Below, piece by piece: positions 2,656-40,095 of a stretch of 64,000 bases of DNA (the stretch's first letter is position 1; each line of letters opens with the position of its first letter). Below the pieces are notes generated by a model. The model was not told the DNA's origin. It made no database searches and saw nothing but the letters and a program-made list of their open reading frames with translations. Origin of the DNA: Pseudomonadota bacterium (GTDB lineage: Bacteria; Pseudomonadota; Gammaproteobacteria; GCA-001735895); the NCBI GenBank assembly GCA_022563685.1, contig JADFMY010000001.1, positions 10,707 through 74,706 of the forward strand, read 5' to 3'. A program made the translations under genes and the position numbers.

Positions 2656-5592
2656 TCACGAGACCAGGCCCAGTTTAACTATCGCTATACAACCACCATT
2701 TTCGCCCGCCTGTAACTGCAATTTACCCTGTTGCAATTCGACGAATCGCTTGGCGATAGCGAGTCCCAGTCCGGTACCTTTCGACCGACCGGTATAGAAA
2801 GGCTCGAATAATTCATCCACCGTATCTATATCTATACCGCAACCATTATCTTCGATGGCGATATTGATGGCAGAATTTTCATCACCCAGTTCCAGCCGCA
2901 CAGATATATTGATAATCGGCCTGACATCTTCGAGGGTTTCCACAGACTGTATTGCGTTTGCGAGTAAATTGGATATCACCTGGCGTAGTTTTCTGGAATC
3001 CGCATTGATCAAAGGCAGGCCCTTTTCGAACCAGGTATTGATGGTTGCACCGGATGCATTAATTTCCTTTTGAACAATACTGATGCTGTGCTCGATTAGA
3101 TTTTTTGTATCTATCCATTCCAGATTGACCGCATCCGGGCGTGAATAGCTCATCAGATCGGCGAGTATATCTTCCATATAATGTACTTGCTCAAGCGCTA
3201 TCTGATTAAGCTCGATGGCATTTTTCTGACTCAGTTTACTAGACTGCTTTTGAAAAATCTGTAATCCCATCTTGATCGACGAGAGCGGATTGCGCAGGTC
3301 GTGGGCAATCACATTTGCCATTTTCCCCACCGTATTAAAAGCCTGATTACGGCTTATTTCCTCGTTACGCTGCATTAACTCATTTTCGAGCTGGTGTCTT
3401 ATGGTCAGGTCTATGACCGCCGAAATATTCAATTCCCCCTCTAGACTGGGCGCCGAGCTAACGCCGATTTCAACTGGAAATACTTCTCCGGATTTTTTAT
3501 GAGCCAGAAAATCTCTCCCCTGCTCCGCACTTATGCCTGTACTTTCGATCGTGCTATCGGATTGCACCAACAATCTTTGTTGCGATACTTCGTCTGGAAT
3601 CACAAGGTGAATATCCTTGCCGACCAACTCACTCTCCTGGTAACCAAACATTTTCAGCAAGTGGTCGTTGACGAGCAGAATTTCACCGTCGCCGTTCGAC
3701 ATAACCATCGCCACGGGAGCCGAGTTGAAACAGTGCTTGAAGCGTTCTTCGAGCATTTTCTGCTCGGTGATATCTTCCTTTACCGCGAGGAAGTGGGTTA
3801 TTTCTCCTTCAGAATTTCGGATACCTGAAATAGACGCCGACTCCCAGTAAAGTTCGCCACTTTTCTTACGGTTGTGAAATATGCCGCGCCAGGTTTTTCC
3901 TTGCTTAACTTTACGCCATAAGTTGGAATATTCTTCATCACTGGTTTCACCGGATTTGAGGATGCGGGGGGTAAGACCTTTGACCTCTTCCAGACTGTAA
4001 CCCGTCAAGCTTTCGAATTTTGGATTAACATACTCAATCAGGCCCTCTTTGTCGGTAAGAACGACCGAGGCAGGACTTTGTTCCACTGCTTCGGATAAAT
4101 GTCGTACACGCATTTCATTCTCTCGATATTGGGTAATATCTTCACCGATAAATATCAACCCAACATCTTCTCCCTCGGAATTGGTCAGGAAGGTATCGTG
4201 CCAGCGGATTAGATACTCGCGTTTTAAACGATCCTGTAACCAGCTTTCATGCGTTGTTGTGTCTTTGCGCCGTTGGATAGCCTGTTCGAAAAATTCGCTG
4301 CAAGCATCTTTAAACTGGTTAGCAACGAGTGTTTCTATCCAGTGCTTACCCAGCAGTTGCGCCCTTTGCCAGCCCAGTAAATTGAGCAGGGCATTATTAC
4401 AGAAGGTAATATTGCCCTGCATATCCACGGCCAGGATATTAACCTCGATGGACTCAAATACTCTTCGGAAATATTGCTCGGACTCGATATCAATCTCTGC
4501 CATCTGATGACTGGCTCTAAAACGCGCAATGATATGCCCACCGATCAGGAATACTAAAAACACAATCAGGTAGAAGAGCCAGTTGCCGCGAAAAAAATCC
4601 TTTCCCAGTGTATTGAGTTCGGCGGGCGTAATATGGGCGACCAGGCTCCAGGGTCGATTGAAAAATTCGGGTCTGGCCTGAGACGTATCATAATCTTTAC
4701 TCAAACCGGTTATTTCAATGCCGGGAAAAACGGTGTTATAACTGAACAAACCGTTAGGACTACTAAACTGACCCGATTCAGAGGTAGATATCCGCTCCCA
4801 CTCGTTTTCATAGTCGGTGGCGAATGTATATTCATGGTCCAGCATAAAACCCCATTCCAAATCACGGTTAAAGTGGCTTAACCAGTAACCTTCGTGGTTC
4901 AACAACATAACGCGATTAGAAATATTTGAGGTTGCGGCACGGAAATTGTTAAGTAATCGATTACCCAGATAATTAAGAATCAGCACGCCGACCCTGATTC
5001 CGGAAGAATTAAATACTGGCGTTCCAAAACGTATCACCGGCTTTATTGGTATCTGAATCCTTCCGTGTTCGACATTGAGATCAAAAGGTGAAATATAGAT
5101 TTCATTTCTATCGAGTTCCAACGCCTCCCGAAAATAGTATCTTTGCGCCTTGTGCTGCAGGTAGGCTTCTTCGACGATAATGGATTTACCATCACGATTG
5201 TTAATGCGTATCACTTCCTGACCGTTTATATCGATCAGGCGAATTTGATCGTAGATTATTTTTTCACGGGAAAATAACGCCAGGTCTCGCGCCAGAATGG
5301 CAAGTGTCTGCGCATCAAGATGATCAAAGTACCCATGTAACTCAGCCTGCCTGGCGAGAAAACTAACATCGGACTGAATATTGGTAAGCTCGGTAACAAT
5401 CGCAGTTTTACCCAGTTCCAGATTGAGTAACTCCTGATCATTGCGCTTCGATGTTTCAGCCGAAATATAGCTGTTGTAATGAACTGCCAGGATCGCCAGC
5501 AATATGACAATCGATATCGACGTATACCACAAGGTCTGCTGAAGTATGCGTTGATTTTTACTGAGGTGATGAACAGGTGTATGGCTGAGCAT
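2656..5592 (-). CDS. sensor histidine kinase with a periplasmic Cache-like domain, multiple PAS domains, HisKA and HATPase_c
   Basis: 978 aa. Two TM segments flank a ~300-aa extracytoplasmic domain. These are followed by repeated PAS-like blocks, an H-box (AHDLRNPLSSI) and G-boxes (DNGCGI, GTGLGLAI). Confidence 0.9.
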   Translation of the reverse strand: MLSHTPVHHLSKNQRILQQTLWYTSISIVILLAILAVHYNSYISAETSKRNDQELLNLELGKTAIVTELTNIQSDVSFLARQAELHGYFDHLDAQTLAILARDLALFSREKIIYDQIRLIDINGQEVIRINNRDGKSIIVEEAYLQHKAQRYYFREALELDRNEIYISPFDLNVEHGRIQIPIKPVIRFGTPVFNSSGIRVGVLILNYLGNRLLNNFRAATSNISNRVMLLNHEGYWLSHFNRDLEWGFMLDHEYTFATDYENEWERISTSESGQFSSPNGLFSYNTVFPGIEITGLSKDYDTSQARPEFFNRPWSLVAHITPAELNTLGKDFFRGNWLFYLIVFLVFLIGGHIIARFRASHQMAEIDIESEQYFRRVFESIEVNILAVDMQGNITFCNNALLNLLGWQRAQLLGKHWIETLVANQFKDACSEFFEQAIQRRKDTTTHESWLQDRLKREYLIRWHDTFLTNSEGEDVGLIFIGEDITQYRENEMRVRHLSEAVEQSPASVVLTDKEGLIEYVNPKFESLTGYSLEEVKGLTPRILKSGETSDEEYSNLWRKVKQGKTWRGIFHNRKKSGELYWESASISGIRNSEGEITHFLAVKEDITEQKMLEERFKHCFNSAPVAMVMSNGDGEILLVNDHLLKMFGYQESELVGKDIHLVIPDEVSQQRLLVQSDSTIESTGISAEQGRDFLAHKKSGEVFPVEIGVSSAPSLEGELNISAVIDLTIRHQLENELMQRNEEISRNQAFNTVGKMANVIAHDLRNPLSSIKMGLQIFQKQSSKLSQKNAIELNQIALEQVHYMEDILADLMSYSRPDAVNLEWIDTKNLIEHSISIVQKEINASGATINTWFEKGLPLINADSRKLRQVISNLLANAIQSVETLEDVRPIINISVRLELGDENSAINIAIEDNGCGIDIDTVDELFEPFYTGRSKGTGLGLAIAKRFVELQQGKLQLQAGENGGCIAIVKLGLVS

Positions 5593-5601
5593 GGTGAGGG
5601 G

Positions 5602-5934
5602 TCAGCCACATTGAGTTAGCATCAAATAGCGTAGCCGTTGCAGATAATCCGCCCTGGTCTCGCCGGCCTGCTTTGGATGAAGAAACAGCAGTTTAGCCGC
5701 GATCATAGTTTGCCGTCGCGCTTCGTGATCTATGGTCGCAGATTGATCCATTAACATTTGCAGGTTTGTCAGTGCCCTTTCGGGGTTCTTGCAATAGCGC
5801 GGAAAACTGATGTTATGCGCATACCATTGCGACATCAAAGAGATCGACAACAATGCCAGCATTACCGGGATTATAATTTTCCATGGGTTAAATCGTGGTG
5901 ACGCCGATTCGGACTGACTGGAGGAATTATTCAT
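5602..5934 (-). CDS. hypothetical single-pass membrane protein
   Basis: 110-aa ORF with one TM helix (WKIIIPVMLALLSISLM). It has a 4-nt overlap with the upstream gene and lies 9 nt before the kinase gene. I recognise no family. Confidence 0.5.
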   Translation of the reverse strand: MNNSSSQSESASPRFNPWKIIIPVMLALLSISLMSQWYAHNISFPRYCKNPERALTNLQMLMDQSATIDHEARRQTMIAAKLLFLHPKQAGETRADYLQRLRYLMLTQCG

Positions 5935-7355
5935 ACCCGGTTCAGAACTTCATCAGCATTGGTCCAGACATAAGCAGGTCTGGATGTCGTCCCTTCAGTC
6001 ATCCTGGTACTTATCTGGTCGGCTACGGTTTTAGCCTGAATGATACGATCTCTAATCGAAATACCCTGCAGGTAGTTGGCGACAAAATGCAGGCCGTCAC
6101 AGCGGCCCTCGTACCGGTTAATCGCCTGGGTTAATCGATGGTAGTTACCGTGATAAAGCGGAAGCCCCTGATGATGCCGATTAATCCTGATCATCTCGGG
6201 CGAGCCCTTAAGTCCGCAAAGGTTTTGTAATGCACGCAGGGTTTGATCGACTAAAACACGGTCTGGATTTTTCAGTGCATCCGCCTGACAGGCGCCGCCG
6301 ATAAAGTTACTGGTGAGCAGTTTTCCTTCGGGTGCCCGATTCGCGATCAGGTTGCTTATCCATAAACTGCCCCGAATGGGTGTTTTTTCACGGCTTGGCA
6401 CCAGGAAACCGCTACCATCCAGTGGTTTGCTAAATGCGCCCCTGTCGAAACCGAGATGAATCTGGGCTATCGGGGCATATTCGATTTGATTCAACAGTGC
6501 GGATAATTTCGGATGGATCGGTTTCAACAATTTGCAGGCGATGTTAGCGGGTGTTGAAAATATGACGTGGCGGGTTTGGTATTGCAATTCAGTAGTGTTA
6601 TCACTAGCAGTCACCCGCCAACCAGATTTTAGCGGTTCGAGGGCGATTACCTGTTGCCCGGTATGAATCTCAGCAAGTGGGTTTTCAGCCAGGGTATCAA
6701 CCAGTGTTTTCATACCACCGGAAAAACTGAATGCTTCCTGTGGCAAGCCTCTTTTTCCAGGTAATAGTTTTTTGATTAACACGCCTGCGGTAATACTACC
6801 AAACTCGTTTTCCAAAGCGGTCAGGCGCGGCAAGGTGGAACGTGCGCAGGCTTTTTCAGGATCACAGGCGAGCACCGCAGAAACATAGGGATCGATCGCC
6901 AGGTCGAGTATCTCCTGCCCTAGCCTGCGTCGAATGAACGCGGCGACGCTCTCCCACTCTGATCGTCGGCAGCACCTGAAGGCCTCGGTGATCATTTGAA
7001 TCCGGGTTTTAAACGAAAACAAATCCGAGCACAGCATCTCCCTGATATTGACTGGCACCTCGGCTAATTCACTATTTTTAAGCACATAACGTTTGGCAAC
7101 CGGATTACGGTTTACCCGATGCTTCTGCAGGCCGGATTCGCTAATAAACCGACTCACGGCTGAGTCAAAGTTAAGAATCATCGAGGCGGCATGATCGGTC
7201 AAATATCCATCCTGATCGGTGCTGTCGATCAATCCTCCGCTACGCTTTGCCTGTTCGAGCAAGATAGAATGTATGCCATGTTGCGACAACCACCAGGCCG
7301 ATGACAAACCCGATATGCCAGCTCCGATAATCAATACACTGCTTTGTCGGGTCAT
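5931..7355 (-). CDS. HemY/CgoX-type FAD-dependent (copro/proto)porphyrinogen oxidase-like protein
   Basis: N-terminal dinucleotide fold VLIIGAGISGLSSAWWL...LLEQAKRSGG. It is collinear with Bacillus HemY to the C-terminus (GSGFLVP..., APEGK.LL, SPEMIRINRHHQGLPLYHGNY, GLHFVANYLQGISIRDRI). Confidence 0.8.
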   Translation of the reverse strand: MTRQSSVLIIGAGISGLSSAWWLSQHGIHSILLEQAKRSGGLIDSTDQDGYLTDHAASMILNFDSAVSRFISESGLQKHRVNRNPVAKRYVLKNSELAEVPVNIREMLCSDLFSFKTRIQMITEAFRCCRRSEWESVAAFIRRRLGQEILDLAIDPYVSAVLACDPEKACARSTLPRLTALENEFGSITAGVLIKKLLPGKRGLPQEAFSFSGGMKTLVDTLAENPLAEIHTGQQVIALEPLKSGWRVTASDNTTELQYQTRHVIFSTPANIACKLLKPIHPKLSALLNQIEYAPIAQIHLGFDRGAFSKPLDGSGFLVPSREKTPIRGSLWISNLIANRAPEGKLLTSNFIGGACQADALKNPDRVLVDQTLRALQNLCGLKGSPEMIRINRHHQGLPLYHGNYHRLTQAINRYEGRCDGLHFVANYLQGISIRDRIIQAKTVADQISTRMTEGTTSRPAYVWTNADEVLNRV

Positions 7356-8635
7356 GGTTCAAGCCCGCCTGATGGTGGGCGTTTCCAGGGCAGGTCGTCA
7401 CCAAAACGCCTGGCCGATAACTGTTGCATATGCTCGACAGTGATTAATTGTTCACCCAGATCAATTACATACGATTCGGTTCTTTTTTTAATCATCGCGC
7501 GCAAAAAGCCGGGGATGCGACCGAGTCTTTTATGCGCCTCGTCGGACCATACCAGGTCAGCACCGGCAAAATCGGTAACAGGCTGGATTACGTCTTTACC
7601 TTGCGGCAGATAATCGCAGGATGCGTCTTCATCCATGATATGCCCTCCCGCTGCCAGTGGTCTCGCACGGCAGCCGCCGCAGAGTTTTCGAAATTCGCAA
7701 TAACCGCATTTACCGGTCAATTGTGGGTTGCGTAAGGATAGAAAATCGGGCGCGGTAGTCCAGATTGAGTGAAAATCCTGTTGGCGAATATTACCGACAC
7801 TTTGCTCAATATACGGACAGGCAGTCACCTCTCCTTCGGGCGTTACACGGCAATAATGGCTGCCGGCGATACAGCCATCACCTTCCATACCACTGATCCG
7901 ATTCAGCGCCGAATCAGGAGCCATCTGCCAGGCTATGCGCTTGAAATAGGGAGCGCAGCGGGGCCGAATAATCAAATCATCGTATTGTTGCTGCAACTGA
8001 ATTATTTTTTTTATGCTCGCTTCATAATGATGCGCAGAGATGTCGCCGACCGATTCTGCGCGTCCGGTACATATAATAAAAAAGAAATTGACCACCCTGG
8101 CCCCGGACAGCCTGGCAAACAAAACGATATCCTTGATCTCGTGATAATTGTTATCGGTAATGGAAAAATGTATTTGGAAATCGAGCCCATGCTTCCGGCA
8201 ATGCTCGATACCTGTCATAGTTTTATGCCAGCTACCGGGCTTACCTCTAAAGGCATCATGACGCGACGCATCCAGCGAATCGACGCTAATGCCTATGCCC
8301 ATTGCCCCGGCATTTTTCAGTGACACGACGCGTCGTTCGGTCAGCAAGGCGCCATTGCTACCGATCACCAACATCAGGCCCAATTGCTTGCCATGGCTGC
8401 AAATCGCTTCCAGATCCTTCCTGATGAGGGGTTCCCCGCCGGTTAGTACCACCATGGTTTGATCGTGATGCAGCGCTATCTGGTCGAGCAGACCTTTCAC
8501 TTCGTCGGTGGTTAATTCGTTGGGTGACGGTGTTGTTAAGTCATCGGCGTCGAGATAACAGTGCGCACAGGCCAGATTACACCTGCGGGTTAGATTAATC
8601 GCGATAATCTGGAGTTGATCTGAATCCGCAACCAT
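7352..8635 (-). CDS. radical SAM/SPASM enzyme of the AhbC/AhbD/NirJ type with a C-terminal PCP_red-like domain
   Basis: CxxxCxxC motif CNLACAHC. FFFIICTGRA block as in haem-modifying radical SAM enzymes. Cys-rich SPASM region (CPYIEQ..., CGYCEFRKLCGGCRARP). The tail VWSDEAHKRLGRIPGFLRAMIKKRTESYV resembles the BchB/ChlB C-terminal domain. Confidence 0.8.
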   Translation of the reverse strand: MVADSDQLQIIAINLTRRCNLACAHCYLDADDLTTPSPNELTTDEVKGLLDQIALHHDQTMVVLTGGEPLIRKDLEAICSHGKQLGLMLVIGSNGALLTERRVVSLKNAGAMGIGISVDSLDASRHDAFRGKPGSWHKTMTGIEHCRKHGLDFQIHFSITDNNYHEIKDIVLFARLSGARVVNFFFIICTGRAESVGDISAHHYEASIKKIIQLQQQYDDLIIRPRCAPYFKRIAWQMAPDSALNRISGMEGDGCIAGSHYCRVTPEGEVTACPYIEQSVGNIRQQDFHSIWTTAPDFLSLRNPQLTGKCGYCEFRKLCGGCRARPLAAGGHIMDEDASCDYLPQGKDVIQPVTDFAGADLVWSDEAHKRLGRIPGFLRAMIKKRTESYVIDLGEQLITVEHMQQLSARRFGDDLPWKRPPSGGLEP

Positions 8636-8643
8636 AGCGTGGT

Positions 8644-10812
8644 TCAGCTAGTATTTCTGGGGTCGTCTGGGTCGAGATGAAACTGTCCGTTTTGCATCCA
8701 TTTATCTTTAACCTGGTCAACAGTATGCGCTGTAATTTCCTGCTGCTTATGTTGCCTGGCCCAGGTTTCAATTTCCTGAATCAGCATGCCGCGAATCATC
8801 TTCGGCGCCCTGGCTATTTTATCCCTGGCAGCCGCTTGCCAGTTGAGCGATTCCTGCACTTTGTCCGAACCCTTTCGAAAGACTGTCATGATGTTTTTAA
8901 CAAACTCTACGTCGATAGACTGTAAGCCCGTTTTTCGGGCTATGGTTTCCATGGCATTAATGCCCATGTCCCGGCAGTAACCCTCGGGAATATTATCCAG
9001 CAGTTTTTTGGAACCCGGCTCCCATACCATTGCTGTATCCTCACCCACATCTGCTGTATCCTCACCCGCATCATCAGCCAGAGCCCTACCGGCAAACGGA
9101 CATTTACTCGCTTTAGGCGCGGGTTTTTCTCCACTCCTGACCTGCTCTTCCATTTCAAGGCGGGCAATTTCGAGTCCCTTTTCTACCACTTCCAGCGAGA
9201 TATTATGAGTGTTGGTTTTGATTGCATAATTTTCGATATTCTTTTTCGCCGTATCGCGCATAAATCCCTCTGGAGCCCGCATTAACCTCGCGATAGCTGC
9301 AGCCTCCCAGTGTAATTCCTGAACCTCGGTGGTTTCATCGCCGGATTCTCTGGTTTGCGTAAAGGGCTGTATATGCTGCACCTCAACTTGCCAGGTTTTA
9401 TCGGCGCGCGCCTTTTTTTCCGCGCGGCCCTTGAGATTCTCTCGCAGCGAGGGGTCGTTTACCGATTGCAATAGAACCTCCGCTGCGTCGCTCCAGACCA
9501 TAACTTGAGAGGTCACGGATTTTTTCAGTTCTCCACGATCGGCCGCATCTACGATTTCCTGCAGCGCATTTTCAGCATTACCCGGCATCAGTTCCGCGGT
9601 TGCCGCCTCGACGATACTTTCAGTGATTACCGTGTGACCCTTTTCATGGGCGTATCGTAAAATTGCCATCCTGGCCATCGGGCGCACAAAATCGGGCACC
9701 CTGAGCATGCGTTTTTCTGCTTCAACCGACCAGGAAGTGGTCGTTGCAGCGATACGATCGATACGCGGCTGGTGCTCCTGCATACTCAGCAAAATCGCAC
9801 AATTGACATTACGCAGCAAGTTTTCGGCGTTGCCGCCGATGTCGAGCTCAGGGTCGGCGTGGACACCCATTTTGCCAATGACCAGTAACGAGGGGTTTAT
9901 TTCGGCGACATATTTTTCAATCGCATCGTAGGCTTTACCATCCAGCAATCGGGTTTCAATTTCTACATCATAGTCCTGTGCTATCGATTGAGCGACATCC
10001 AGATGTCCCTGATATATCTTTGCGAGCCCCGAATCGATGATATCTTCATGCAGCTTTTCCTGCTCTTTGAACTTGAACACTTTTTCGGCCTCTTCGGATA
10101 GCACCTCGGCTATGCGGTTAAACGCCACATAGTGGTAATAAGGGTCAAACGTGGCGATGACTTTTATCTCGACCTGCCACTGTTTCGCCAGTGAAAATGC
10201 CGTGAGCAAAGCGCCGTATGACTTGCTCGAACCATCCAGCGCAACGACAATGGGGCCTTCACTGAGCTTACGCTGCGGCTGCTTGATAACCAGCGTATCG
10301 ATATTGCTGCGGCGTACAGTCCTGCCGCAAACGGTGCCGATACGACTACCCTCGATGGCGCCAACCCCAATCGATCCCATCACCAGCAAATCGTAAGTAC
10401 CGTTATTGGCCTCACCCACCAGGGCGCGGTAATTTTTGCCCTCAAGCGATGACCGGTGGAAATCTAATTCCTGCTGCTGACATAGCCTGTCGATCTGATC
10501 CAGATACGATTCGGTAATAATCGACAGGCCGCGCGTGATTAATTCGTTGTGTACCTCGCGCTGATGTTCGAGTTCCTGCTCTACCCGGTATTGCTCGGGT
10601 AAACCACCTTCCATCTGCCGAAAACGTAAATCGTGCATCTTCGCCGCATAGGCATGGGTACCCGTGATTTTGCTACCCCAGTATTGAGCCAACCTGACGG
10701 CTTCTTCGACTGCCTGGTTGGAGTGATCGGAAGAATCGACTGCCACCAGTATTGACTGGTATTGCGTTAACGGATCAAGTGACTTCTTCGGTTGTTGAGC
10801 GATTGCAGTCAT
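8644..10812 (-). CDS. multidomain protein: two universal stress protein (USP) domains followed by five PCP_red-like repeats
   Basis: ORF 8644..10947, trimmed to the ATG at 10812 (MTAIAQQPKK). USP blocks are ILVAVDSSDHS...LLVMGSIGVG and IVVALDGSSKS...LLVIGKMGVH. Five repeats of W-x2-x-A-x3-L-x2-P-x-(F/M)-(V/M/C)R...E..A follow. Confidence 0.75.
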   Translation of the reverse strand: MTAIAQQPKKSLDPLTQYQSILVAVDSSDHSNQAVEEAVRLAQYWGSKITGTHAYAAKMHDLRFRQMEGGLPEQYRVEQELEHQREVHNELITRGLSIITESYLDQIDRLCQQQELDFHRSSLEGKNYRALVGEANNGTYDLLVMGSIGVGAIEGSRIGTVCGRTVRRSNIDTLVIKQPQRKLSEGPIVVALDGSSKSYGALLTAFSLAKQWQVEIKVIATFDPYYHYVAFNRIAEVLSEEAEKVFKFKEQEKLHEDIIDSGLAKIYQGHLDVAQSIAQDYDVEIETRLLDGKAYDAIEKYVAEINPSLLVIGKMGVHADPELDIGGNAENLLRNVNCAILLSMQEHQPRIDRIAATTTSWSVEAEKRMLRVPDFVRPMARMAILRYAHEKGHTVITESIVEAATAELMPGNAENALQEIVDAADRGELKKSVTSQVMVWSDAAEVLLQSVNDPSLRENLKGRAEKKARADKTWQVEVQHIQPFTQTRESGDETTEVQELHWEAAAIARLMRAPEGFMRDTAKKNIENYAIKTNTHNISLEVVEKGLEIARLEMEEQVRSGEKPAPKASKCPFAGRALADDAGEDTADVGEDTAMVWEPGSKKLLDNIPEGYCRDMGINAMETIARKTGLQSIDVEFVKNIMTVFRKGSDKVQESLNWQAAARDKIARAPKMIRGMLIQEIETWARQHKQQEITAHTVDQVKDKWMQNGQFHLDPDDPRNTS
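9031..9072. repeat. in-frame 21-bp tandem duplication (2 units, 1 mismatch) inside the USP/PCP_red gene
   Basis: tgctgtatcctcacccacatc / tgctgtatcctcacccgcatc. These encode DAGEDTA / DVGEDTA in an acidic linker between repeats 3 and 4. Confidence 0.85.
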
Positions 10813-10838
10813 GATTAATGGTTGCCCCCTTTTAAAGA

Positions 10839-10970
10839 TTACTGGCCGAAAAATAACCAGTAAGAAAATAAGTAAAGCACGACAAGAATATTGATCGCAG
10901 CACCGGCAAGTACAAAATAATCGAACCCGGTAAGCTGCTGGAACCAATGTTGTTGCGGGTTCTGTTTCAT
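10839..10970 (-). CDS. small hydrophobic peptide (43 aa, one TM helix)
   Basis: MKQNPQQHWFQQLTGFDYFVLAGAAINILVVLYLFSYWLFFGQ. It fills the gap between two operon genes on the same strand. I recognise no family. Confidence 0.35.
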   Translation of the reverse strand: MKQNPQQHWFQQLTGFDYFVLAGAAINILVVLYLFSYWLFFGQ

Positions 10971-10992
10971 CAATTCGCTAACCGCCCGGTTG

Positions 10993-11757
10993 TTATTTTT
11001 TAAAGCTGAAATCAACGGTTTGTGTCGCACCGGCAGATACCGTGGCTTTGCCCTTCTGGGTACCGAGCGTACCATGAAAAGCCATCACTTTGTAACTGCC
11101 CGCGGGAATATTGTCGATGCTGTAAGTGCCATCTTCGGCGACCTGTGCGTAATAGGGATTCTTTGCAACGAAAATAAATCCGTGCATAAATTCATGCGCG
11201 TCGCATTCGATCTTCATTGCTACGCCACGCTTGAGTTTGACTTTTTTATTTATCGTACCTTTATCGGGCTGGCTAATATTCATCACCGTCTTTTTAGCCT
11301 TACCGATAATTTCGTAGGTATGTATGTTATGCAACACCGGGTCTTCGTTGACAATGGCGACATTGTTATCGTTATGCATTATTTGCGTGAAAGGCTGAAA
11401 TTTGCAGCCCTGTTGCAAGATTGTCGCATCCCTTTGCGAATCGTCGAAAGCCTTGCCCTGTTTGACTTTATCGAGGTAGACCACCACATCGGTGAGGCGA
11501 CCGCTATTGACCCTGACATAATCGATCGATCGATTACCCGATCCACAGACATCGTTGTCTTTGGCGATTTTAAAAACCACAGGTGCCGGAACCTGCCCCG
11601 GATAAAACACCTTGCCACTGATGCTACCACCGTCGACAACGTCGATGACTTTATATTTGGCGGCCATAGCATTCTGGCTACCAGTAATGGCCAGAATCAG
11701 GCCGCTAACAATAAAAAAATTTCTTACCACAGGAATTCCCCTTCTAGTTTCATTCAA
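10993..11757 (-). CDS. secreted cupredoxin-like protein with a C-terminal carboxypeptidase-regulatory-like beta-sandwich
   Basis: Signal peptide (FFIVSGLILAITGSQNAMA). C..H..M-type patch CDAHEFMHG. C-terminal AEDGTYSIDNIPAGSYKV...TVDFSF is typical of CarboxypepD_reg folds. ATGA overlap with the HEAT gene. Confidence 0.6.
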   Translation of the reverse strand: MNETRRGIPVVRNFFIVSGLILAITGSQNAMAAKYKVIDVVDGGSISGKVFYPGQVPAPVVFKIAKDNDVCGSGNRSIDYVRVNSGRLTDVVVYLDKVKQGKAFDDSQRDATILQQGCKFQPFTQIMHNDNNVAIVNEDPVLHNIHTYEIIGKAKKTVMNISQPDKGTINKKVKLKRGVAMKIECDAHEFMHGFIFVAKNPYYAQVAEDGTYSIDNIPAGSYKVMAFHGTLGTQKGKATVSAGATQTVDFSFKK

Positions 11758-14180
11758 TGTCTGGATGCGGATTGATCGGCTGTGAAGCGGTACATCTCTT
11801 CCAGCATTTCAATCACAAATCGTCGCTCATAACTGCTAGTCAAATCTTTTAATAGCTGAATCAGTTTTTCGGTAGCCTGAACCGGTGCGATGTCTTTCAG
11901 GATCAGTGCCATATCACGGGTTCTACCGCCCTGATTACTAACCGCAGATTTGATTATTTGTTCTATGGCCCTGTCGATCAGCTGCTGTTGCTGGTTTATT
12001 TCATCGTGCAATAGACAGCGTTTAATATTTTTTACCGCACTGTAGCGTACACCGCTCTCACTATCTTCGAGGCAATCGATTAAGCTTATGAACCACTCGC
12101 TGAGCGACGGTGGTAACTCTGGAACATGCGCATTTTTCAGCAACTCGTCGCCATCGAGCATCAAGTCTGTAATCGATTGAATAGCCTGGATCTTCAATGC
12201 CGCCCGACTATGATCGAGTGCGGTGATTAGAATCGGTATCGCAGCGCGATTGCGTATCGCTGCCAGCGCTTTCATACAGGCGAGTTTTAAATCCCATTGT
12301 TCGTTGTGGAATTGAGTCACCAGCCCTCCAAAGGCATACTCTATGCCCGGAGTTTTTGGGTTTGCGATTGCAATCTGTGCTATCGATTCAGCCGCGCAAG
12401 TGCGTAATTTGCAATCCTCGGCGTTTAACGCCGATAGCAGACTGTTGATGATGCGCGTGGATTTCTCTTCGCTTAAATGCCCCGGTAAACCGGACAGTAT
12501 TCTGGCTGCCAGACGTCGTACATCGCTTGCTACGGAGACATCTTCTTTTTGATCGAATAACCATTCGCTGCGTACAATATTATCCTGTACCAAATCACGG
12601 TATTCATCGAGCGATGGGTCGGGATCCTGATCTATTGCCGGTTCGTTATTCATCTGTTTGAGAGATTCTTCTACCTGCTGATTATCCTGCAGGATCGATT
12701 CCAGCGTCGACATTGCTTCGACAGCCTGATCATCGCTGGATTCCTGTTCCTCCGGGGTTATTTTCGCCTCTGGTTCAAGCCTGCCCGGATTTGCGCTATC
12801 GACGATTGAAGCGACTTCAATTTCCAGTACAACCCGGCCATTGAGTGTCTGGTTTACAATATCTATAGGCGTGGAGTGCGTATCTTGATCCAGGTTAACT
12901 TCGTCCAGGTTTTTCTCCAGGGACATTAAGGCCTGCAAGGTAGTGAGCCTGATGCTGCTATCATTATGGTTGATCAGGCTTGTCATAATCCGCGAAACCT
13001 TGACATTCCAGCGGCATAACTGTGCCAGAATGTCAATACAACTGGTTATAATCTGACTGGATAATTTAGGTCGCAGTATTAACTGTATGAGTTGAGCCTG
13101 GGCCTGTTCGGGGTTAGATAACTTGAGCAGCAAGGGGATTGCCGCCAGAATCACCTTTTCATTCTTATCATTCAAGGCCGACAGAATTTGGTCGCTTAGC
13201 TGATCCTGGTCGAGTTTGGTAGCGGTCGATTGCAGAGATTGCAGATAGGCCGCTCTGACATCGGCATCGGGGTCTTTCAATAGTCGTTGGCTGACGGCTA
13301 TAGGTGTGCTTTTTTCGCCCGCTATTTCCGATTTAACCATGAGGCTCAGATCGTTATATGCCAGAATGGCCGCCTGCCGCACTTTTTCTGAACGATCTTT
13401 CTTGAGTAGTTCTATCGCGCGCAGATATTGGCCTGCTTTTCGATCAACCAGTGCCTGCAGGGCGTTAAGGCGCACTTCTTCTGAACTATCGGTGAATGCA
13501 GAAGCAAGCGCCTTGAGTGATTCTGACGAATTCGAAAACGATAACTCGTGAGCCGCCCGCCGACGTGTCTGGGCTGAGGCCGACTTAAGCTGATCGATAA
13601 CAATTTGTTCACCCTCGCCACCAATACTGACCAGGGATTTTAAAATATCGTGTTCGATATCGAGCACGTCATCGCTACTCAGTAGCTGTTGTAATACTGG
13701 AGTCGCCTGCTCTGCCTTCATCTGGCCCAATGAAATAACAGCCTGACGCTGCATATCCCACCAGTCATCCCAGTCTTCGTTACTGTCGATGATCATATCT
13801 TCTGGATGGTGTTCGGCTAATTGCAGCAATACAGGAATACTTGCAGGGCTTTTGATTTCGCCCAGGGCTTTCACGATAGCGGTCTTTAATTCACCATCTG
13901 GGTCATGTTCCAGCGATTCCAGCAATTGCGGAACAACATGAAGCGCATTCAGCTTTCCAAGTGCTTCTGCGGCATCGATGCAGACATCGATGTCTTCATC
14001 CCTGAGTCTTAATACCAGGTCATCGATCGCCTCTACCGCTCCAATCGAGCCCAGTGCCCGGCTGGCATTACATTTATCCACTTCGTCTCCAGCATCGAGC
14101 AAGTCACGCAAACGATGTATGACCATAGCCTTACACTGGCTGGATGGATCGCTGGTTTGATTGTTATCTGCTACTTGCAC
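11754..14180 (-). CDS. HEAT-repeat (PBS-lyase-like) protein, 808 aa
   Basis: Repeated ~30-aa units such as ASRALGSIGAVEAIDDLVLRLRDEDIDVCIDAAEALGKL and ELKTAIVKALGEIKSPASIPVLLQL run along the whole protein. The start is GTG 14180 and is uncertain. Confidence 0.75.
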   Translation of the reverse strand: MQVADNNQTSDPSSQCKAMVIHRLRDLLDAGDEVDKCNASRALGSIGAVEAIDDLVLRLRDEDIDVCIDAAEALGKLNALHVVPQLLESLEHDPDGELKTAIVKALGEIKSPASIPVLLQLAEHHPEDMIIDSNEDWDDWWDMQRQAVISLGQMKAEQATPVLQQLLSSDDVLDIEHDILKSLVSIGGEGEQIVIDQLKSASAQTRRRAAHELSFSNSSESLKALASAFTDSSEEVRLNALQALVDRKAGQYLRAIELLKKDRSEKVRQAAILAYNDLSLMVKSEIAGEKSTPIAVSQRLLKDPDADVRAAYLQSLQSTATKLDQDQLSDQILSALNDKNEKVILAAIPLLLKLSNPEQAQAQLIQLILRPKLSSQIITSCIDILAQLCRWNVKVSRIMTSLINHNDSSIRLTTLQALMSLEKNLDEVNLDQDTHSTPIDIVNQTLNGRVVLEIEVASIVDSANPGRLEPEAKITPEEQESSDDQAVEAMSTLESILQDNQQVEESLKQMNNEPAIDQDPDPSLDEYRDLVQDNIVRSEWLFDQKEDVSVASDVRRLAARILSGLPGHLSEEKSTRIINSLLSALNAEDCKLRTCAAESIAQIAIANPKTPGIEYAFGGLVTQFHNEQWDLKLACMKALAAIRNRAAIPILITALDHSRAALKIQAIQSITDLMLDGDELLKNAHVPELPPSLSEWFISLIDCLEDSESGVRYSAVKNIKRCLLHDEINQQQQLIDRAIEQIIKSAVSNQGGRTRDMALILKDIAPVQATEKLIQLLKDLTSSYERRFVIEMLEEMYRFTADQSASRH

Positions 14181-14216: not shown

Positions 14217-14231
14217 GCACAAACGATGCCA
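14217..14231 (-). promoter_or_regulatory. candidate sigma-54 (-24/-12) promoter for the minus-strand operon
   Basis: The reverse complement reads TGGCATCGTTTGTGCT. GG-N10-GC spacing is correct and the -12 region is imperfect. It lies ~40 nt upstream of the HEAT gene start. Confidence 0.35.
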
Positions 14232-14563: not shown

Positions 14564-14579
14564 TGGCAGGATATTTGCA
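14564..14579 (+). promoter_or_regulatory. sigma-54 (-24/-12) promoter of the CydA-like/cytochrome c operon
   Basis: TGGCAG-gatat-TTGCA against the consensus TGGCAC-N5-TTGCA. It lies 39 nt upstream of the first micro-ORF ATG. Confidence 0.65.
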
Positions 14580-14617: not shown

Positions 14618-14767
14618 ATGAGTGGACAAAACGACGAGCTCGATAACGGACCGGACGATGATTCGGTCACCTGGGGCCCGATATTGTTTTACGGCACCCT
14701 CATCGCCGGGTTGGTATTTTTCTGGTGGATGGTGATCTACTCGCATGGCGTATCACCCACACACTAA
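14618..14767 (+). CDS. micro-ORF, 49-aa single-TM peptide (not in the ORF track)
   Basis: ATG preceded by gaaggcggga. MSGQNDELDNGPDDDSVTWGPILFYGTLIAGLVFFWWMVIYSHGVSPTH has an acidic head and one TM helix. It lies directly behind the sigma-54 promoter. Confidence 0.4.
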   Translation: MSGQNDELDNGPDDDSVTWGPILFYGTLIAGLVFFWWMVIYSHGVSPTH

Positions 14768-14798: not shown

Positions 14799-14927
14799 AT
14801 GAATAAAACGCTCACTCACTGGCTGCTGGCAGCGGTCATAGTCATCGGTCTGTTTTACGGTTTGAACCACATCGTCATGTCTATGCAAGGGTTACCGCTC
14901 AATCTGAATTTAACTCCGATACAGTAA
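14799..14927 (+). CDS. micro-ORF, 42-aa single-TM peptide (not in the ORF track)
   Basis: MNKTLTHWLLAAVIVIGLFYGLNHIVMSMQGLPLNLNLTPIQ. Its stop abuts the CydA-like ORF. Confidence 0.4.
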   Translation: MNKTLTHWLLAAVIVIGLFYGLNHIVMSMQGLPLNLNLTPIQ

Positions 14928-14982: not shown

Positions 14983-16839
14983 ATGAGCAGAAATCCAGAC
15001 AATATCCGTAACAAATACCTGTATTTAGCCCTGTTATTGTTGTTATTTCTATCGGCGACAGCTCTCATATCACTGGCCATATCAGGCAAAGTTTACGCAA
15101 CTATAGAGACAGGTTCCACTGCAGCAGAATCTGTTGCATTGTCGGCAGAAAATGCCAGCAGCCGAATACCCTTCCCGGCGCCGAATTTAAAACGCGAAGA
15201 CTACCCGCGTATGGGTATTAGCAGCCGTTCAATTGTCTGGGTCATTGCGCAGATGCATCTGTTTTTTGCTGCGTTTGTACTCGCGGTACCAATCTTCGTT
15301 CTGGTAATCGAGTGGATTGGTGTCAGGACCGGTGACGAGCGTTACGACGATATGGCGCATGAGTGTATGAAAATCAGCATGACCGCCTACTCGATAACCG
15401 CGCTATTCGGTGGCACACTGGTATTCGCACTGTTTCTGCTGTACCCGCAATTCATGGCTTACATGATGCATGTGTTTGATTCGCAGGTACTGGTATACGC
15501 ATTTCTGTTCTTTGCCGAAAGCGCCTTCCTCTATCTCTATTACTACAGTTGGTATGCCTGTCGATACGGCAATAAAAAATGGGTTCATCTGACCCTGGGC
15601 CTGATGCTGAACATTACAGGTACCACCTTGCTACTCCTCGCCAATGCCTGGGTCACTTTTATGATGGCACCGTCGGGGGTCGATGATGCGGGCGTGGTCA
15701 CCGGCAGTATCTGGGAAATTATGCGCGGCCCGTTGTGGAACCCGATAAATTTACACCGTTTTATTGCCAATATTGCATTTGGTGGGGCGGTTATCGGCGC
15801 CTATGCGGCTTACAAGTTTCTTTCATCCACCGACCCACGCGCCAGAGCGCATTACGACTGGATGGGTTACACCGCCAACTTTATCGCCATCCTCGCATTT
15901 TTACCCTTACCGTTTGCCGGCTACTGGCTGATGGCCGAGATCTACGCCTACTCCCAGCAAATGGGAATTACCGCGATGGGCGGAATACTGGCCTGGTTGT
16001 TTATCATACAGGCGGTATTGATCGGTACTATTTTGCTGGCGGGTAATTATTATCTCTGGTCGGGTATGTCGCGTACCCTGGGATCTGAGCGTTATACCTG
16101 GATGATCAAATATATCGCCATCGTACTGGTGACCTGCTTCCTGGTCTGGGTGACGCCGCATACGCTGATTTTGAGCGCGTCCGAAATGAGGCAACTGGGC
16201 GGCAGCCGTCATTACATTCTGGGGCCGCTCGGTATCATGCCGGCGAAAAATATCGCGGTTAACCTGATGTTGATCTTCACCTTTCTGTCGTTCCAGATAT
16301 ACCGTCGTGCCGATAAGGAAGTCACCGTTAGCTGGGCCGGTTTCGGCAACACGTTGATGGTTTGCATCTATGTCGTCGCGATAGTTAACATCGTATTTGC
16401 CGGTGTGTATTACGGTTATTTCACCAATACCGTATACAAGGTCGGTTCCAGCGTCATGCAGGTAGTATCGACGCTGGTGGTTATCGGTGCTGGAATCACG
16501 ATAGATTCCCTGATGTTCAAGGGTGCTAAAAAACTACCCTCCGAATGGGGCAAGGTATCCAACCGCGCTCAATACGCGCTTTTCGCATTACCGATCACCT
16601 TTACCTGGTTGATGGCCCTGATGGGTTACGTGCGCTCGTCGGTCAGAACCAACTGGCATGTGTACACGGTGATGAAAGACAACTCCCCCGATAATTTCAT
16701 TCCCACCATCGGTTATGCCGGCAACATGATGACCCTCGTCACCGTGCTATTCCTGTTGTTTGTACTGTTTATATTCTGGATTGCCTCTTTGAGCGACAAA
16801 AAGCAACCAAAGCCAGCCTTTCTGGCCGGTGGTGATTAA
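14983..16839 (+). CDS. cytochrome bd subunit I (CydA)-like membrane protein, no CydB partner
   Basis: Matches E. coli CydA blocks: AQMHLFFAAFVLAVPIF ~ TAMYHFLFVPLTLG (His19 region), FFAESAFLYLYYYSW ~ FFLESTFVGLFFFGW (Glu99), LLLLANAWVTFMM ~ LWILVANGWMQNP, and NPINLHRFIANIAFGG ~ NPVAQVKFVHTVASGY. The ATG at 14983 with ggtgga upstream is preferred to the GTG at 14929. Confidence 0.75.
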   Translation: MSRNPDNIRNKYLYLALLLLLFLSATALISLAISGKVYATIETGSTAAESVALSAENASSRIPFPAPNLKREDYPRMGISSRSIVWVIAQMHLFFAAFVLAVPIFVLVIEWIGVRTGDERYDDMAHECMKISMTAYSITALFGGTLVFALFLLYPQFMAYMMHVFDSQVLVYAFLFFAESAFLYLYYYSWYACRYGNKKWVHLTLGLMLNITGTTLLLLANAWVTFMMAPSGVDDAGVVTGSIWEIMRGPLWNPINLHRFIANIAFGGAVIGAYAAYKFLSSTDPRARAHYDWMGYTANFIAILAFLPLPFAGYWLMAEIYAYSQQMGITAMGGILAWLFIIQAVLIGTILLAGNYYLWSGMSRTLGSERYTWMIKYIAIVLVTCFLVWVTPHTLILSASEMRQLGGSRHYILGPLGIMPAKNIAVNLMLIFTFLSFQIYRRADKEVTVSWAGFGNTLMVCIYVVAIVNIVFAGVYYGYFTNTVYKVGSSVMQVVSTLVVIGAGITIDSLMFKGAKKLPSEWGKVSNRAQYALFALPITFTWLMALMGYVRSSVRTNWHVYTVMKDNSPDNFIPTIGYAGNMMTLVTVLFLLFVLFIFWIASLSDKKQPKPAFLAGGD

Positions 16840-17714
16840 TGCTATCAACCAGCGGGAAAATGAACCATCGGCAACGCGGCTCTATCCTGCTTAAAATCAT
16901 ATTGTTCAGTATTTCACTGACGCTGGTGTTTACCCTGTTCGCTAATCTTTTACCCCAGGTAGAGGGCGAGGCGCCGGTAGAACAGCAAATCGACCCTGGC
17001 GCCCTGACTGCGGACAGCTTCGTCGCACTCGGCGAAAGCACTTTTACCGGTAAAGGATCCTGCACCCTGTGTCATAACAACATGGGCCGCGCACCCGATA
17101 TCCTGCAACTGAATATGGTCGATATCTCGGCGCAAAGACTACAAGATGATCGATATCAGGGAGATGCAAACTCGGTTGAAGACTACCTGCGCGAGTCGAT
17201 GCTATCGCCGGGTGCGTACGTGGTTAAAGGCTATGGCAAAAAAGGGACTAAGGATACCGAGTCGCCGATGCCTGAAGTCGACAAGGCGCCTATCCTGCTC
17301 AACAACATCGAAATTGATGCCGTGATCGCATTTATGCAGGCGAAAGACGGCCACGAAGTCACGGTCGCATTACCCGAAGCTTTGCCAGTACCGGGCGAAG
17401 AAATCAAGGCACAGGCCGCACCGGTTACAGCGGTGTCAGCCCCGGCAGAAAACGCCGAAGTAGCTTTGGGTAAGTATATCTGTACCGCCTGCCATAGCCT
17501 GGCGGGCAGCGTATCTCCAGTCGGTCCTGATCTCAATACGGTGGGTGACCGGTTAAATCGAGACCAGATCAGTCAAAGTATCATCGACCCGAATGCAGTC
17601 ATTGCCGAGGGTTTCTTTGCCGGCGTAATGCCAGCCGATTTCGCCGGCAAAATGACAGTCAGCGAACTTGCGATGATCGTCGACTTCCTGGCGAATCAAA
17701 AGGCAAATCAATAG
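16839..17714 (+). CDS. membrane-anchored dihaem cytochrome c
   Basis: N-terminal TM helix and two CxxCH motifs (CTLCH, CTACH). The start overlaps the previous stop (TAATG). Confidence 0.8.
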   Translation: MLSTSGKMNHRQRGSILLKIILFSISLTLVFTLFANLLPQVEGEAPVEQQIDPGALTADSFVALGESTFTGKGSCTLCHNNMGRAPDILQLNMVDISAQRLQDDRYQGDANSVEDYLRESMLSPGAYVVKGYGKKGTKDTESPMPEVDKAPILLNNIEIDAVIAFMQAKDGHEVTVALPEALPVPGEEIKAQAAPVTAVSAPAENAEVALGKYICTACHSLAGSVSPVGPDLNTVGDRLNRDQISQSIIDPNAVIAEGFFAGVMPADFAGKMTVSELAMIVDFLANQKANQ

Positions 17715-24283: not shown

Positions 24284-24351
24284 GTACCCAATAAGTAATT
24301 AAACAGTCCCCTCTGAAACACAGAGGTTGCTAACTATTGGAGGTAAGCATT

Positions 24352-25479: not shown

Positions 25480-25494
25480 GTTTGGGAGTAGCTA

Positions 25495-27269: not shown

Positions 27270-27281
27270 GAGACACAACAC

Positions 27282-35219: not shown

Positions 35220-35241
35220 GGCGGTACCAGCGATTGACTCA

Positions 35242-36048: not shown

Positions 36049-36153
36049 ATGAAAATCCTTTCATTAGCACTGTTTGGTAGATCGACTTCGAGGAAAAAAT
36101 GATGCTTTTGTTCCTGCAATAGAAACAAAAGCATCCAATCACACAGAGGAGAT

Positions 36154-36510: not shown

Positions 36511-36553
36511 GATTAATTCCTCAACAAATCTCAAAACTTCATCTAGTGGCAGC

Positions 36554-37978: not shown

Positions 37979-37996
37979 CTTTATATCTCCAAATTG

Positions 37997-39079: not shown

Positions 39080-39212
39080 TTTTATAGTCCTCCTATACTC
39101 CAAAGCCAACAAGCAAATCCATCGCGTTCACCATTTCATGTGGTTCTTGTTTCTCTATTTGATTTGATTCCATTGGGGTATTCACGGTGAACTCCGATAT
39201 AAATAATTCTCT

Positions 39213-40088: not shown

Positions 40089-40095
40089 ACTACTT

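Follow-up and report, generated by a model that had tools for sequence, protein, structure and literature searches.

Background

CtaA and CtaB, the haem O/A synthases, are encoded beside cox genes. Elsewhere in haem metabolism, HemW, a protein of the radical SAM type, acts as a haem chaperone serving NarI, and AhbD and CgdH both turn propionate into vinyl groups, each on a substrate of its own (PMC10114771). AhbD-like enzymes have also been proposed for organisms that use the coproporphyrin pathway and have no other Ahb genes (PMC13564367; PMC10114771), and a set of cytochrome bd-like oxidases, OR-N1 and OR-N2, has been described (Murali, Gennis and Hemp, bioRxiv 10.1101/2021.01.16.426971). 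The present analysis concerns a 64,000-nucleotide stretch of contig JADFMY010000001.1 (assembly GCA_022563685.1, positions 10,707 to 74,706), hereafter 'the window', from the metagenome-assembled genome (MAG) of a chemolithoautotrophic gammaproteobacterium. One operon of the window encodes, among other products, a universal stress protein (USP) fused to PCP_red domains, a radical SAM/SPASM enzyme with a PCP_red tail and a HemY-family oxidase; the divergent operon encodes an OR-N-type oxidase. The two have been inherited together in several proteobacterial classes and in Desulfobacterota, with the gene set beside the oxidase in hundreds of sulfur- and iron-oxidising bacteria, and we favour, at slightly better than even probability, the proposal that the minus-strand genes form an accessory module making, holding and handing over a haem cofactor of the OR-N-type complex.

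An initial annotation of the window, made from the sequence itself, had already interpreted the minus-strand run as a porphyrin- or haem-handling system, and had counted four independent tetrapyrrole signatures in it. The genes, motifs and Pfam domains that it listed are present, including CNLACAHC, FFFIICTGRA, CDAHEFMHG and GAFTGA in the window translations, with the exception of the CarboxypepD_reg domain, which at 27.4 bits falls below its cut-off of 32.3. The signatures were overcounted, as PCP_red on two proteins constitutes a single signal. What is retained of the tetrapyrrole interpretation is two tetrapyrrole enzyme families, the PCP_red domain and the link to an oxidase; the signature count, the HEAT protein and equivalence to AhbD are not, and the chemistry is put forward here as a proposal.

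Conservation of the module and its linkage to an oxidase operon

Family assignments were made with Pfam and NCBIfam/TIGR models on the window proteins, applying curated equivalog cut-offs. The minus-strand genes form a tightly packed run from 14180 to 1125, beginning with a HEAT-repeat gene and ending with a sigma-54 response regulator. The features of the two operons are listed by position in the window.

1125 to 2537, minus strand: sigma-54-dependent response regulator with receiver (REC), AAA+ (GAFTGA) and Fis-type helix-turn-helix domains (Sigma54_activat 229.7, Response_reg 84.1, HTH_8 35 bits)
2656 to 5592, minus strand: histidine kinase with a periplasmic Cache-like sensor, three PAS domains, HisKA and HATPase (Pfam; syntenic)
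5602 to 5934, minus strand: 110-aa protein with a single transmembrane segment, a conserved PRYC motif and a C-terminal Cys
5931 to 7355, minus strand: HemY-family FAD oxidase of the protoporphyrinogen/coproporphyrinogen oxidase type, 474 aa (TIGR00562, Pfam)
7352 to 8635, minus strand: AhbD/NirJ2-group radical SAM/SPASM enzyme bearing a PCP_red domain at its C-terminus, 427 aa (Pfam, NCBIfam)
8644 to 10812, minus strand: USP-USP-(PCP_red)x5 protein, cytoplasmic, 722 aa (Pfam and the domain pattern of an AlphaFold2 model)
10839 to 10970, minus strand: 43-aa transmembrane peptide directly 5' of the USP-PCP_red gene, unannotated
10993 to 11757, minus strand: putative secreted type-1 cupredoxin resembling amicyanin, with an Ig-like domain at its C-terminus, 245-254 aa (start at 11757, TTG, or at 11730)
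11754 to 14180, minus strand: all-HEAT repeat protein, cytoplasmic, 808 aa, first gene of the minus-strand operon
14217 to 14231, minus strand: candidate sigma-54 -24/-12 promoter of the HEAT-to-regulator operon, TGGCATCGTTTGTGC
14564 to 14578, plus strand: candidate sigma-54 -24/-12 promoter of the oxidase operon, TGGCAGGATATTTGC
14618 to 14767, plus strand: small transmembrane peptide WGPxLF...FFWWxxIYSxGV, 49 aa, kept in 41 loci and called as a gene in one of them (L085)
14799 to 14927, plus strand: small transmembrane peptide FYGLxHxxMxMQGLPLN, 42 aa, kept in 40 loci
14983 to 16839, plus strand: CydA-like subunit I of an OR-N-type cytochrome bd-like oxidase (PF01654, 66.9 bits)
16839 to 17714, plus strand: membrane-anchored dihaem cytochrome c with two CxxCH motifs and one transmembrane segment (Pfam; syntenic)
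17717 to 20128, plus strand: trihaem cytochrome c with three CxxCH motifs, fused to an EB_dh (haem b) domain and bearing a C-terminal transmembrane anchor (syntenic)

The 4-nt overlaps between the radical SAM and HemY-like genes (7352/7355) and between the HemY-like and 110-aa genes (5931/5934) are reproduced by independent gene calls on identical metagenome contigs. A third overlap listed in the initial annotation, at 11754/11757, hinges on a TTG start, and gene callers place the start of the secreted protein 23 nt downstream.

A pattern scan for the USP-PCP_red protein, with one genome per species, returned 388 genomes, and 80 loci were examined. These span the Gamma-, Beta-, Zeta- and Alphaproteobacteria, and include representatives from Sedimenticola, Thiodiazotropha, tubeworm symbionts, Thiothrix, Parabeggiatoa, Thiolapillus, Gallionella, Mariprofundus and Parvularculaceae. 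The recurrence of the gene order in 80 loci from several proteobacterial classes implies that it goes far beyond chance. Counts are given relative to either the 50 loci with enough downstream sequence, or the 32 with at least 9 kb on either side. The radical SAM gene accompanies the USP-PCP_red gene in 50/50 loci and the HemY-like gene is found in 48/50, while the CydA-like/cytochrome c/EB_dh operon lies within 10 kb in 28/32. The HEAT, cupredoxin and 110-aa genes and the kinase/regulator pair are each present in 22-24 of the 32 (22 for HEAT, 24 for the regulator). In Gammaproteobacteria the oxidase operon is divergent; Gallionella has it upstream and co-directional, and Mariprofundus downstream. 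Hence the linkage has been kept through rearrangements. The USP-PCP_red, radical SAM, HemY-like and CydA-like genes thus co-occur across genomes, and the connection to the divergent CydA-like/cytochrome c operon that had been suggested at the outset is upheld by synteny across phyla and by sigma-54 elements on either side. Among the tested observations that had been named in advance as contradicting a tetrapyrrole system, none was made: the PCP_red matches are significant, and gene order is kept in relatives.

Clustering of all open reading frames (ORFs) in the 80 loci identified no ferrochelatase or other hem gene recurrent near the module, in line with the absence of ferrochelatase remarked on earlier, and the 64-kb window contains no further hem gene. 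Furthermore, no description of this gene set was found in full-text searches of the literature, in agreement with the initial annotation, which knew of no characterised system of this composition. Public annotation of the proteins is generic, using the names 'radical SAM protein', 'universal stress protein', 'protoporphyrinogen oxidase' and 'cytochrome ubiquinol oxidase subunit I'.

The module in Desulfobacterota and Magnetococcales

Using the nearest outgroup radical SAM protein (P0245) as a query retrieved a clade from Desulfobacterota ('Deltaproteobacteria') and Magnetococcales, from which seven loci were sampled. In four of these (L086, L088, L089 and L091), a USP-PCP_red gene (~390 aa, comprising two USP domains and one PCP_red) is followed, with a 4-nt overlap, by a radical SAM-PCP_red gene (~403 aa) and then by a 51-66-aa peptide with two transmembrane segments, the whole run being convergent with an operon for a CydA-like protein, two cytochromes c and a cytochrome c fused to EB_dh. 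The same accessory run is found in L092, where a 117-nt gap replaces the overlap, the radical SAM protein is 428 aa, the peptide is 73 aa and the oxidase operon also includes a cytochrome b. Hence the pair adjoins a CydA-like/cytochrome c/EB_dh operon in 5/7 outgroup loci; in L090 it lies beside a cytochrome b only, and in L087, a Magnetococcales contig, it stands alone. In L092 (11426-12673) and L090 (11195-12388), a bc1-type cytochrome b and a tetratricopeptide repeat (CcmH/CycH-like) gene were observed within or in place of the oxidase operon.

No homologues of HemY, the HEAT protein, the cupredoxin or the 110-aa protein were detected within 9 kb in the outgroup loci. As the outgroup keeps the pair and the oxidase without HemY, the ancient core appears to comprise the USP-PCP_red protein, the radical SAM-PCP_red protein and the OR-N oxidase. 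Judged from this distribution, HemY and the remaining genes are proteobacterial additions, and HemY does not belong to that core. A 31-37-aa peptide with the motif ...NAQGLSF, encoded 5' of the cydA-like gene in Desulfobacterota, resembles the 42-aa peptide of the window.

The oxidase operon and its regulation

The divergent operon fits the OR-N1/N2 'cytochrome bd-like' family on the features of its products. In common with the OR-N oxidases, the window's CydA homologue has around 14 transmembrane segments (approximately 13-14, of which a crude scan delineates 13 hydrophobic ones) and equivalents of E. coli His19 and Glu99: His109 and a Glu take these positions when the protein is aligned to Geobacillus CydA (5doq), in a phmmer alignment that covers the first four helices. 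Also in common are the absence of CydB and the presence of operonic cytochromes c, with 2+3 CxxCH motifs; the trihaem protein matches both EB_dh (62.6 bits) and DMSO_red_II_gam (68 bits). Identity between CydA-like proteins is 75% within Gammaproteobacteria, and 56-63% to those of Desulfobacterota. The 49-aa and 42-aa peptides are probably CydX-like small oxidase subunits. By contrast with the window, the account of the OR-N oxidases (bioRxiv 10.1101/2021.01.16.426971) names no radical SAM, HemY, PCP_red or HEAT accessory genes. In two further loci, L054 and L080, a divergent type of module was observed beside a similarly divergent CydA-like/cytochrome c set (30-43% identity).

Both operons face away from a common intergenic region with conserved sigma-54 elements. 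The pattern TGGYAC-N5-xTGC occurs 30-180 bp upstream of the HEAT gene in ~31/33 loci, and an equivalent lies upstream of the oxidase operon's two small ORFs, also in ~31/33. An argument from the number of such motifs in the window was rejected, the 71 matches comparing with 63 +/- 7 expected; the case for sigma-54 is carried by positional conservation alone. This promoter evidence suggests that the two operons are co-regulated. The PAS domains of the histidine kinase have NifL- and FixL-like NCBIfam matches. In Gammaproteobacteria the PAS kinase and the sigma-54 activator are encoded at the locus itself. In a Sedimenticola symbiont (L085), the genes for both overlap the stop codons before them, the start of the regulator overlapping the stop of the kinase, and therefore the genes from HEAT through to the regulator form one operon.

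The radical SAM/SPASM enzyme

The radical SAM protein matches the Pfam models Radical_SAM (84.9 bits), SPASM (32.1 bits) and PCP_red (49.9 bits). It was placed by ranking NCBIfam scores for the window protein and ten neighbours from a search of 1.84 billion representative proteins. The window protein scores highest against NirJ2 (TIGR04055, 307.8 bits) and then AhbD (TIGR04545, 281.8 bits), in each case over the full model length, with AhbC, NirJ and NirJ1 at ~160 bits and the PqqE, mycofactocin and sactipeptide maturase models at no more than 147 bits. In ten of the ten neighbours tested the top score was again AhbD or NirJ2, and the nearest non-orthologous neighbours in the search (37-47% identity) also have a PCP_red tail. 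The N-terminal CX3CX2C cluster (C19/C23/C26) and an auxiliary motif, CX2CX5CX2CX17C (C310/C313/C319/C322/C340), are invariant in 28 sequences, and the latter is the C-terminal motif described for AhbD (PMC10114771).

Judged by these scores, the enzyme belongs to the AhbD/NirJ2-like group without being an AhbD equivalog. The AhbD-type assignment in the initial annotation is therefore kept for the family ranking and the cysteine motif and given up for equivalence, as the score of 282 bits compares with a cut-off of 500. The activity suggested by this membership would be decarboxylation of coproheme to haem b. The group resembles AhbD/NirJ2 in its best-scoring families and in both cysteine motifs, and differs from them in carrying one to three C-terminal PCP_red domains, in having no ahbABC linkage, and in being obligately paired with the USP-PCP_red gene and the OR-N oxidase operon. 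Neither ahbA/B/C nor a complete coproporphyrin pathway recurs in the 80 loci or is present in the 64-kb window. The length of the protein also varies: the clade of the window has 427 aa and one PCP_red, while most relatives have 670-695 aa and three PCP_red. Examples of the long form occur in Thiodiazotropha, Sedimenticola and Gallionella (e.g. L061:12286-14325 and L016:12132-14219), and the annotation of the Joint Genome Institute (JGI) already names some of the orthologues 'AdoMet-dependent heme synthase'.

A Foldseek search with an AlphaFold2 model of the enzyme (pLDDT 79) returned generic SPASM enzymes, namely PqqE, SuiB, SkfB and anSME. No AhbD or NirJ structure is present in the PDB, so this result does not discriminate between the hypotheses considered below.

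The USP-PCP_red protein

The significance of the PCP_red (PF08369) matches, on which the first reading of the locus depended, is clear: 128.6 bits over four stretches of the 722-aa protein, and 49.9 bits in the radical SAM enzyme. The 722-aa protein also matches Usp over two stretches (108.7 bits), and a fifth repeat of the PCP_red pattern is visible in its AlphaFold2 model, which, having a predicted template modelling score (pTM) of 0.45, was used for domain boundaries and disorder only. The solved isolated domain 2kru is matched by PCP_red as well. As in the C-terminal domain of BchB/ChlB, a subunit of dark-operative protochlorophyllide reductase (DPOR), matches to PF08369 are significant in both window proteins; unlike BchB/ChlB, neither has nitrogenase-like domains, and PCP_red occurs five-fold, fused to USP, or else fused to the radical SAM enzyme. 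The DPOR core is absent, with a score against TIGR01278 (BchB) of 74 versus 490 bits and a match limited to the last ~56 model positions. Furthermore, the hosts of the USP-PCP_red system, unlike those of DPOR, are non-photosynthetic chemolithoautotrophs.

The family has more than 2800 homologues, and its conservation is unusually high, with ~58% identity between Gamma- and Betaproteobacteria. The first USP domain has the ATP-type motif G-x2-G-x9-G-T. Two His/Tyr-rich blocks are invariant, HVYAAKLHD..RFRQMEGGLPEQ and FDPYYHYVAFNRIA, as is C571-P-F, which lies in a linker predicted to be disordered by AlphaFold2 (low pLDDT, residues 562-593). No transmembrane segment was found in the protein.

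The HemY-type oxidase

The HemY-like protein matches Pfam Amino_oxidase (142.7 bits) and passes TIGR00562 (238.4 versus 97.85 bits) over residues 5-452. It aligns end to end with Myxococcus protoporphyrinogen oxidase (PPO; PDB 2ivd, E 3e-60, residues 5-449), tobacco PPO (1sez, E 7e-50) and Bacillus HemY (E 1.5e-39). Hence the initial description of a HemY/CgoX-type oxidase holds for the PPO family and for the full-length alignment, and has to be amended in that the protein is nearer to the Myxococcus and plant PPOs than to Bacillus HemY. Across 59 orthologues, GGGISGL, the Arg of K-R-Y, FSFxxGM and LPxYHG are conserved; we take this Arg to be the equivalent of tobacco Arg98. The family assignment made from sequence would allow either protoporphyrinogen IX or coproporphyrinogen III as the substrate.

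The orthologues are only ~40% identical to each other, and the gene is always 3' of that for the radical SAM enzyme. The window protein is like Myxococcus xanthus HemY/PgoX and plant PPO in being collinear with them and in its FAD motif and K-R-Y arginine, and unlike them in being tied to a radical SAM gene and duplicated with its module in one MAG. That assembly (CBDUSZ01) contains two paralogous USP-PCP_red/radical SAM/HemY modules, L005 and L079, with 84% and 55% identity to the window. The presence of two modules in a single MAG, each with a HemY-like gene, makes a single housekeeping PPO role less likely.

Proposed function and alternatives

The accessory-module reading can be set out as a sequence of steps. 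Proteobacteria normally make haem via protoporphyrin, and have no siroheme-derived coproheme. In these bacteria the HemY-type oxidase would convert coproporphyrinogen III to coproporphyrin III, opening a coproporphyrin branch, and the housekeeping ferrochelatase would insert iron and so feed the radical SAM/SPASM enzyme. This would act as an AhbD-type oxidative decarboxylase on an iron-coproporphyrin-type substrate, with the bound tetrapyrrole capped by its PCP_red tail in the way that protochlorophyllide is by the homologous C-terminal domain of BchB. The USP-(PCP_red)n protein, predicted to be ATP-binding and ATP-responsive, would be a carrier or scaffold at the membrane, with the adjacent 43-aa transmembrane peptide as a possible tether, and would pass the product on to the apo-CydA-like subunit. 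That product may be plain haem b, supplied privately, or else a haem, specific to the oxidase, whose processing is partial or different. The lineage of the Desulfobacterota classically makes coproheme from siroheme; HemY would therefore not be needed there, which is consistent with its absence.

The closest described arrangement is the coproporphyrin variant of anaerobic or facultative Gram-positives, in which CgoX is combined with an AhbD-like enzyme (PMC13564367, PMC10114771). Common to both are an oxidase of the HemY family and a radical SAM enzyme resembling AhbD, with no other Ahb genes. The window system differs in being proteobacterial, in having no CpfC or ChdC in the cluster, in a HemY nearer to PgoX than to Bacillus CgoX, in its position within an oxidase locus under putative sigma-54 control, and in having a version in Desulfobacterota without HemY. 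As a working analogy, CtaA/CtaB and HemW are likewise haem-modifying or haem-delivering proteins encoded with, and serving, one respiratory complex; they have no sequence relationship to the proteins described here, which come from other protein families with other domain fusions.

Several observations weigh against the accessory-module reading. The radical SAM enzyme fails both equivalog cut-offs, each of which is 500 bits, so its substrate may differ. The protoporphyrinogen oxidases of Myxococcus and plants are nearer to HemY than Bacillus CgoX is, and an order in which the radical SAM enzyme precedes HemY (a CgdH-like step, then PgoX) would fit at least as well as the coproheme order. The argument from two modules in one MAG relies on the binning being correct. 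In 4/32 loci the oxidase is not found within 10 kb, and the cluster lacks a ferrochelatase. Finally, a full-text search for PF08369 found no literature showing tetrapyrrole binding by PCP_red outside DPOR.

A tentative extension of the same proposal, which is possible but on the unlikely side, is that the pair, joined by HemY in Proteobacteria, makes a new haem derivative that would be the active-site cofactor of OR-N oxidases, PCP_red then being a general tetrapyrrole-capping carrier domain. The derivative could be a partly decarboxylated, a coproheme-derived or a chlorin-type haem.

It is unlikely, too, that the genes are a conditional booster or bypass of late haem b synthesis, in which the radical SAM enzyme would approximate an oxygen-independent coproporphyrinogen decarboxylase and HemY would be a PPO, both being turned on alongside a very haem-rich complex just to satisfy demand, with no special cofactor or dedicated delivery. 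Such a role would accord with the similarity of HemY to true protoporphyrinogen oxidases, which is also the name given to it by NCBI, with the translational coupling of the radical SAM and HemY genes, with the propionate-to-vinyl conversion shared by AhbD and CgdH (PMC10114771), and with a complex that would require at least five haem c and several haem b. Haem demand nevertheless leaves unexplained the conservation of a multi-PCP_red/USP protein at ~58% identity across classes, and an almost obligate tie to a single oxidase family that persists in several arrangements. Furthermore, the Desulfobacterota pair adjoins the oxidase without HemY, and therefore the role of the pair appears independent of the PPO step.

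Improbable is a function for the radical SAM enzyme as a protein or peptide maturase, acting on an oxidase subunit, a small transmembrane peptide or the USP-PCP_red protein, with PCP_red docking in the manner of the recognition element of ribosomally synthesised and post-translationally modified peptide (RiPP) systems, and the HemY-like protein being of amine-oxidase type. Conserved small ORFs do adjoin the radical SAM or USP-PCP_red genes in every lineage, and PCP_red on both partners suggests docking; the small peptides, though, are hydrophobic, Cys-free transmembrane helices. The nearest solved folds are those of the peptide- and protein-modifying enzymes PqqE, SuiB, SkfB and anSME, but such matches are uninformative given a PDB without an AhbD or NirJ structure. 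The hidden Markov model scores of the tetrapyrrole-related families are two to three times those of the maturases, the AhbD-specific cysteine motif is exact, and HemY passes the PPO equivalog over its full length. A RiPP maturase system proper was rejected, on the basis of the Cys-free transmembrane helices and maturase scores of at most 147 bits.

A role for the USP-PCP_red protein as a sensor or regulator gating the oxidase, with haem bound via Cys-Pro and ATP via USP and the radical SAM protein a HemW-like chaperone and not a catalyst, is very improbable: it would draw on the G-x2-G-x9-G-T motif, on the invariant C571-P-F in a predicted disordered linker, where haem regulatory motifs are typically located, and on the precedent of HemW, but the ~390-aa Desulfobacterota protein has no linker bearing the CP motif, and the radical SAM enzyme keeps every catalytic and auxiliary cluster cysteine.

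Other genes of the minus-strand operon

The HEAT protein matches generic bacterial HEAT models (HEAT_2 152.7, HEAT_PBS 62.7 bits), and its orthologues are ~31% identical. Its identification as a bilin (PBS) lyase was rejected, as the CpcE/CpcF/NblB models give 39-62 bits against cut-offs of 200-330; the bilin-lyase signature seen in it initially thus reduces to generic HEAT repeats, in a gene missing from the Gallionella, Mariprofundus and Desulfobacterota versions. In the accessory-module reading it would be a lineage-specific scaffold.

Two motifs of the secreted protein, HNIH and ECDxH[DE]FMH, show conservation of at least 90% across 41 orthologues, and presumably represent the amicyanin copper ligand set (His...Cys-x2-His-x2-Met). 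The N-terminus is signal-peptide-like, the CarboxypepD_reg and fn3_3 matches are weak, and no cupredoxin family model of Pfam or NCBIfam matches. It is read, from these motifs, as a probable blue-copper electron carrier for the complex and not as a haem factor. Just 3' of the module regulator, the Sedimenticola symbiont encodes a copper P-type ATPase and a heavy-metal-associated (HMA) copper chaperone (L085:18993-21865), which could have to do with supplying the cupredoxin with copper. The kinase/regulator pair is absent from the Gallionella and Mariprofundus versions, where a YncE/NosZ-propeller-like protein of 585 aa, together with an additional cytochrome c, replaces the HEAT protein and cupredoxin (L016:6849-9649; also L083).

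The 110-aa protein has no Pfam or NCBIfam family match, and its gene is conserved 3' of HemY in 36-44 loci. The 43-aa peptide was detected by tblastn at the same position in 39 loci. Gene calls on the identical contigs L001 and L002 miss all three small transmembrane peptides (49, 42 and 43 aa).

Flanking genes of the window

Beyond the oxidase operon, on the plus strand, are two genes for MauG/MbnH-like (MauG/CCP-like) dihaem peroxidases (24337-26691), preceding those for an AioB Rieske small subunit and an AioA molybdopterin large subunit (26688-29978; 118 and 391 bits, above arsenite-oxidase equivalog cut-offs of 96 and 359 bits), with ModABC after them. Genes for MoeA and NnrS lie between the arsenite-oxidase set and the oxidase operon. 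Electrons for the cupredoxin or the oxidase may come from the arsenite-oxidase-type enzyme. A homologue of CCP (cytochrome c peroxidase) is also encoded 3' of the oxidase operon in L008 and L074.

The region 32844-42146 encodes CbbO/CbbQ, the large and small subunits of form I RuBisCO, fructose-bisphosphate (FBP) aldolase, phosphoribulokinase, FBPase and a divergent LysR (CbbR-like) regulator; the presence of RuBisCO and Calvin-cycle genes implies that the host is a Calvin-cycle autotroph. Assignment of 32844-36048 to NorD/NorQ was rejected in favour of CbbO/CbbQ, which lie beside form I RuBisCO. On the minus strand at 43087-48731 are a PhsA/DMSO-reductase-family subunit (840 aa), a 4Fe-4S subunit, a NapC/NirT-type multihaem cytochrome (504 aa) and a NarJ/TorD-like chaperone, every member of this set scoring below its equivalog cut-off. 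After an IS110-family transposase (49048-50310, minus strand) come a phosphonate-binding-type periplasmic protein and a second pair of HAMP histidine kinase and sigma-54 response regulator (50686-54445, plus strand).

Conclusions

OR-N cytochrome bd-like oxidases are widespread, being found in microaerophilic iron and sulfur oxidisers, chemosynthetic symbionts and Nitrospirota. A module composed of tetrapyrrole-enzyme families, with its USP-PCP_red protein in at least 388 genome species and recurring in Desulfobacterota, offers a handle on the haem of these oxidases. The role suggested here would be the first proposed for PCP_red outside protochlorophyllide reductase, and would bring HemY together with an AhbD-like enzyme in Proteobacteria; the limitation of HemY to the proteobacterial version suggests that the pathway branches at coproheme. 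Should the product be a new haem, this would bear on the origin of the active-site haems of the bd family, and if it is only a private supply of haem b, the module would still represent a new kind of oxidase-specific assembly system.

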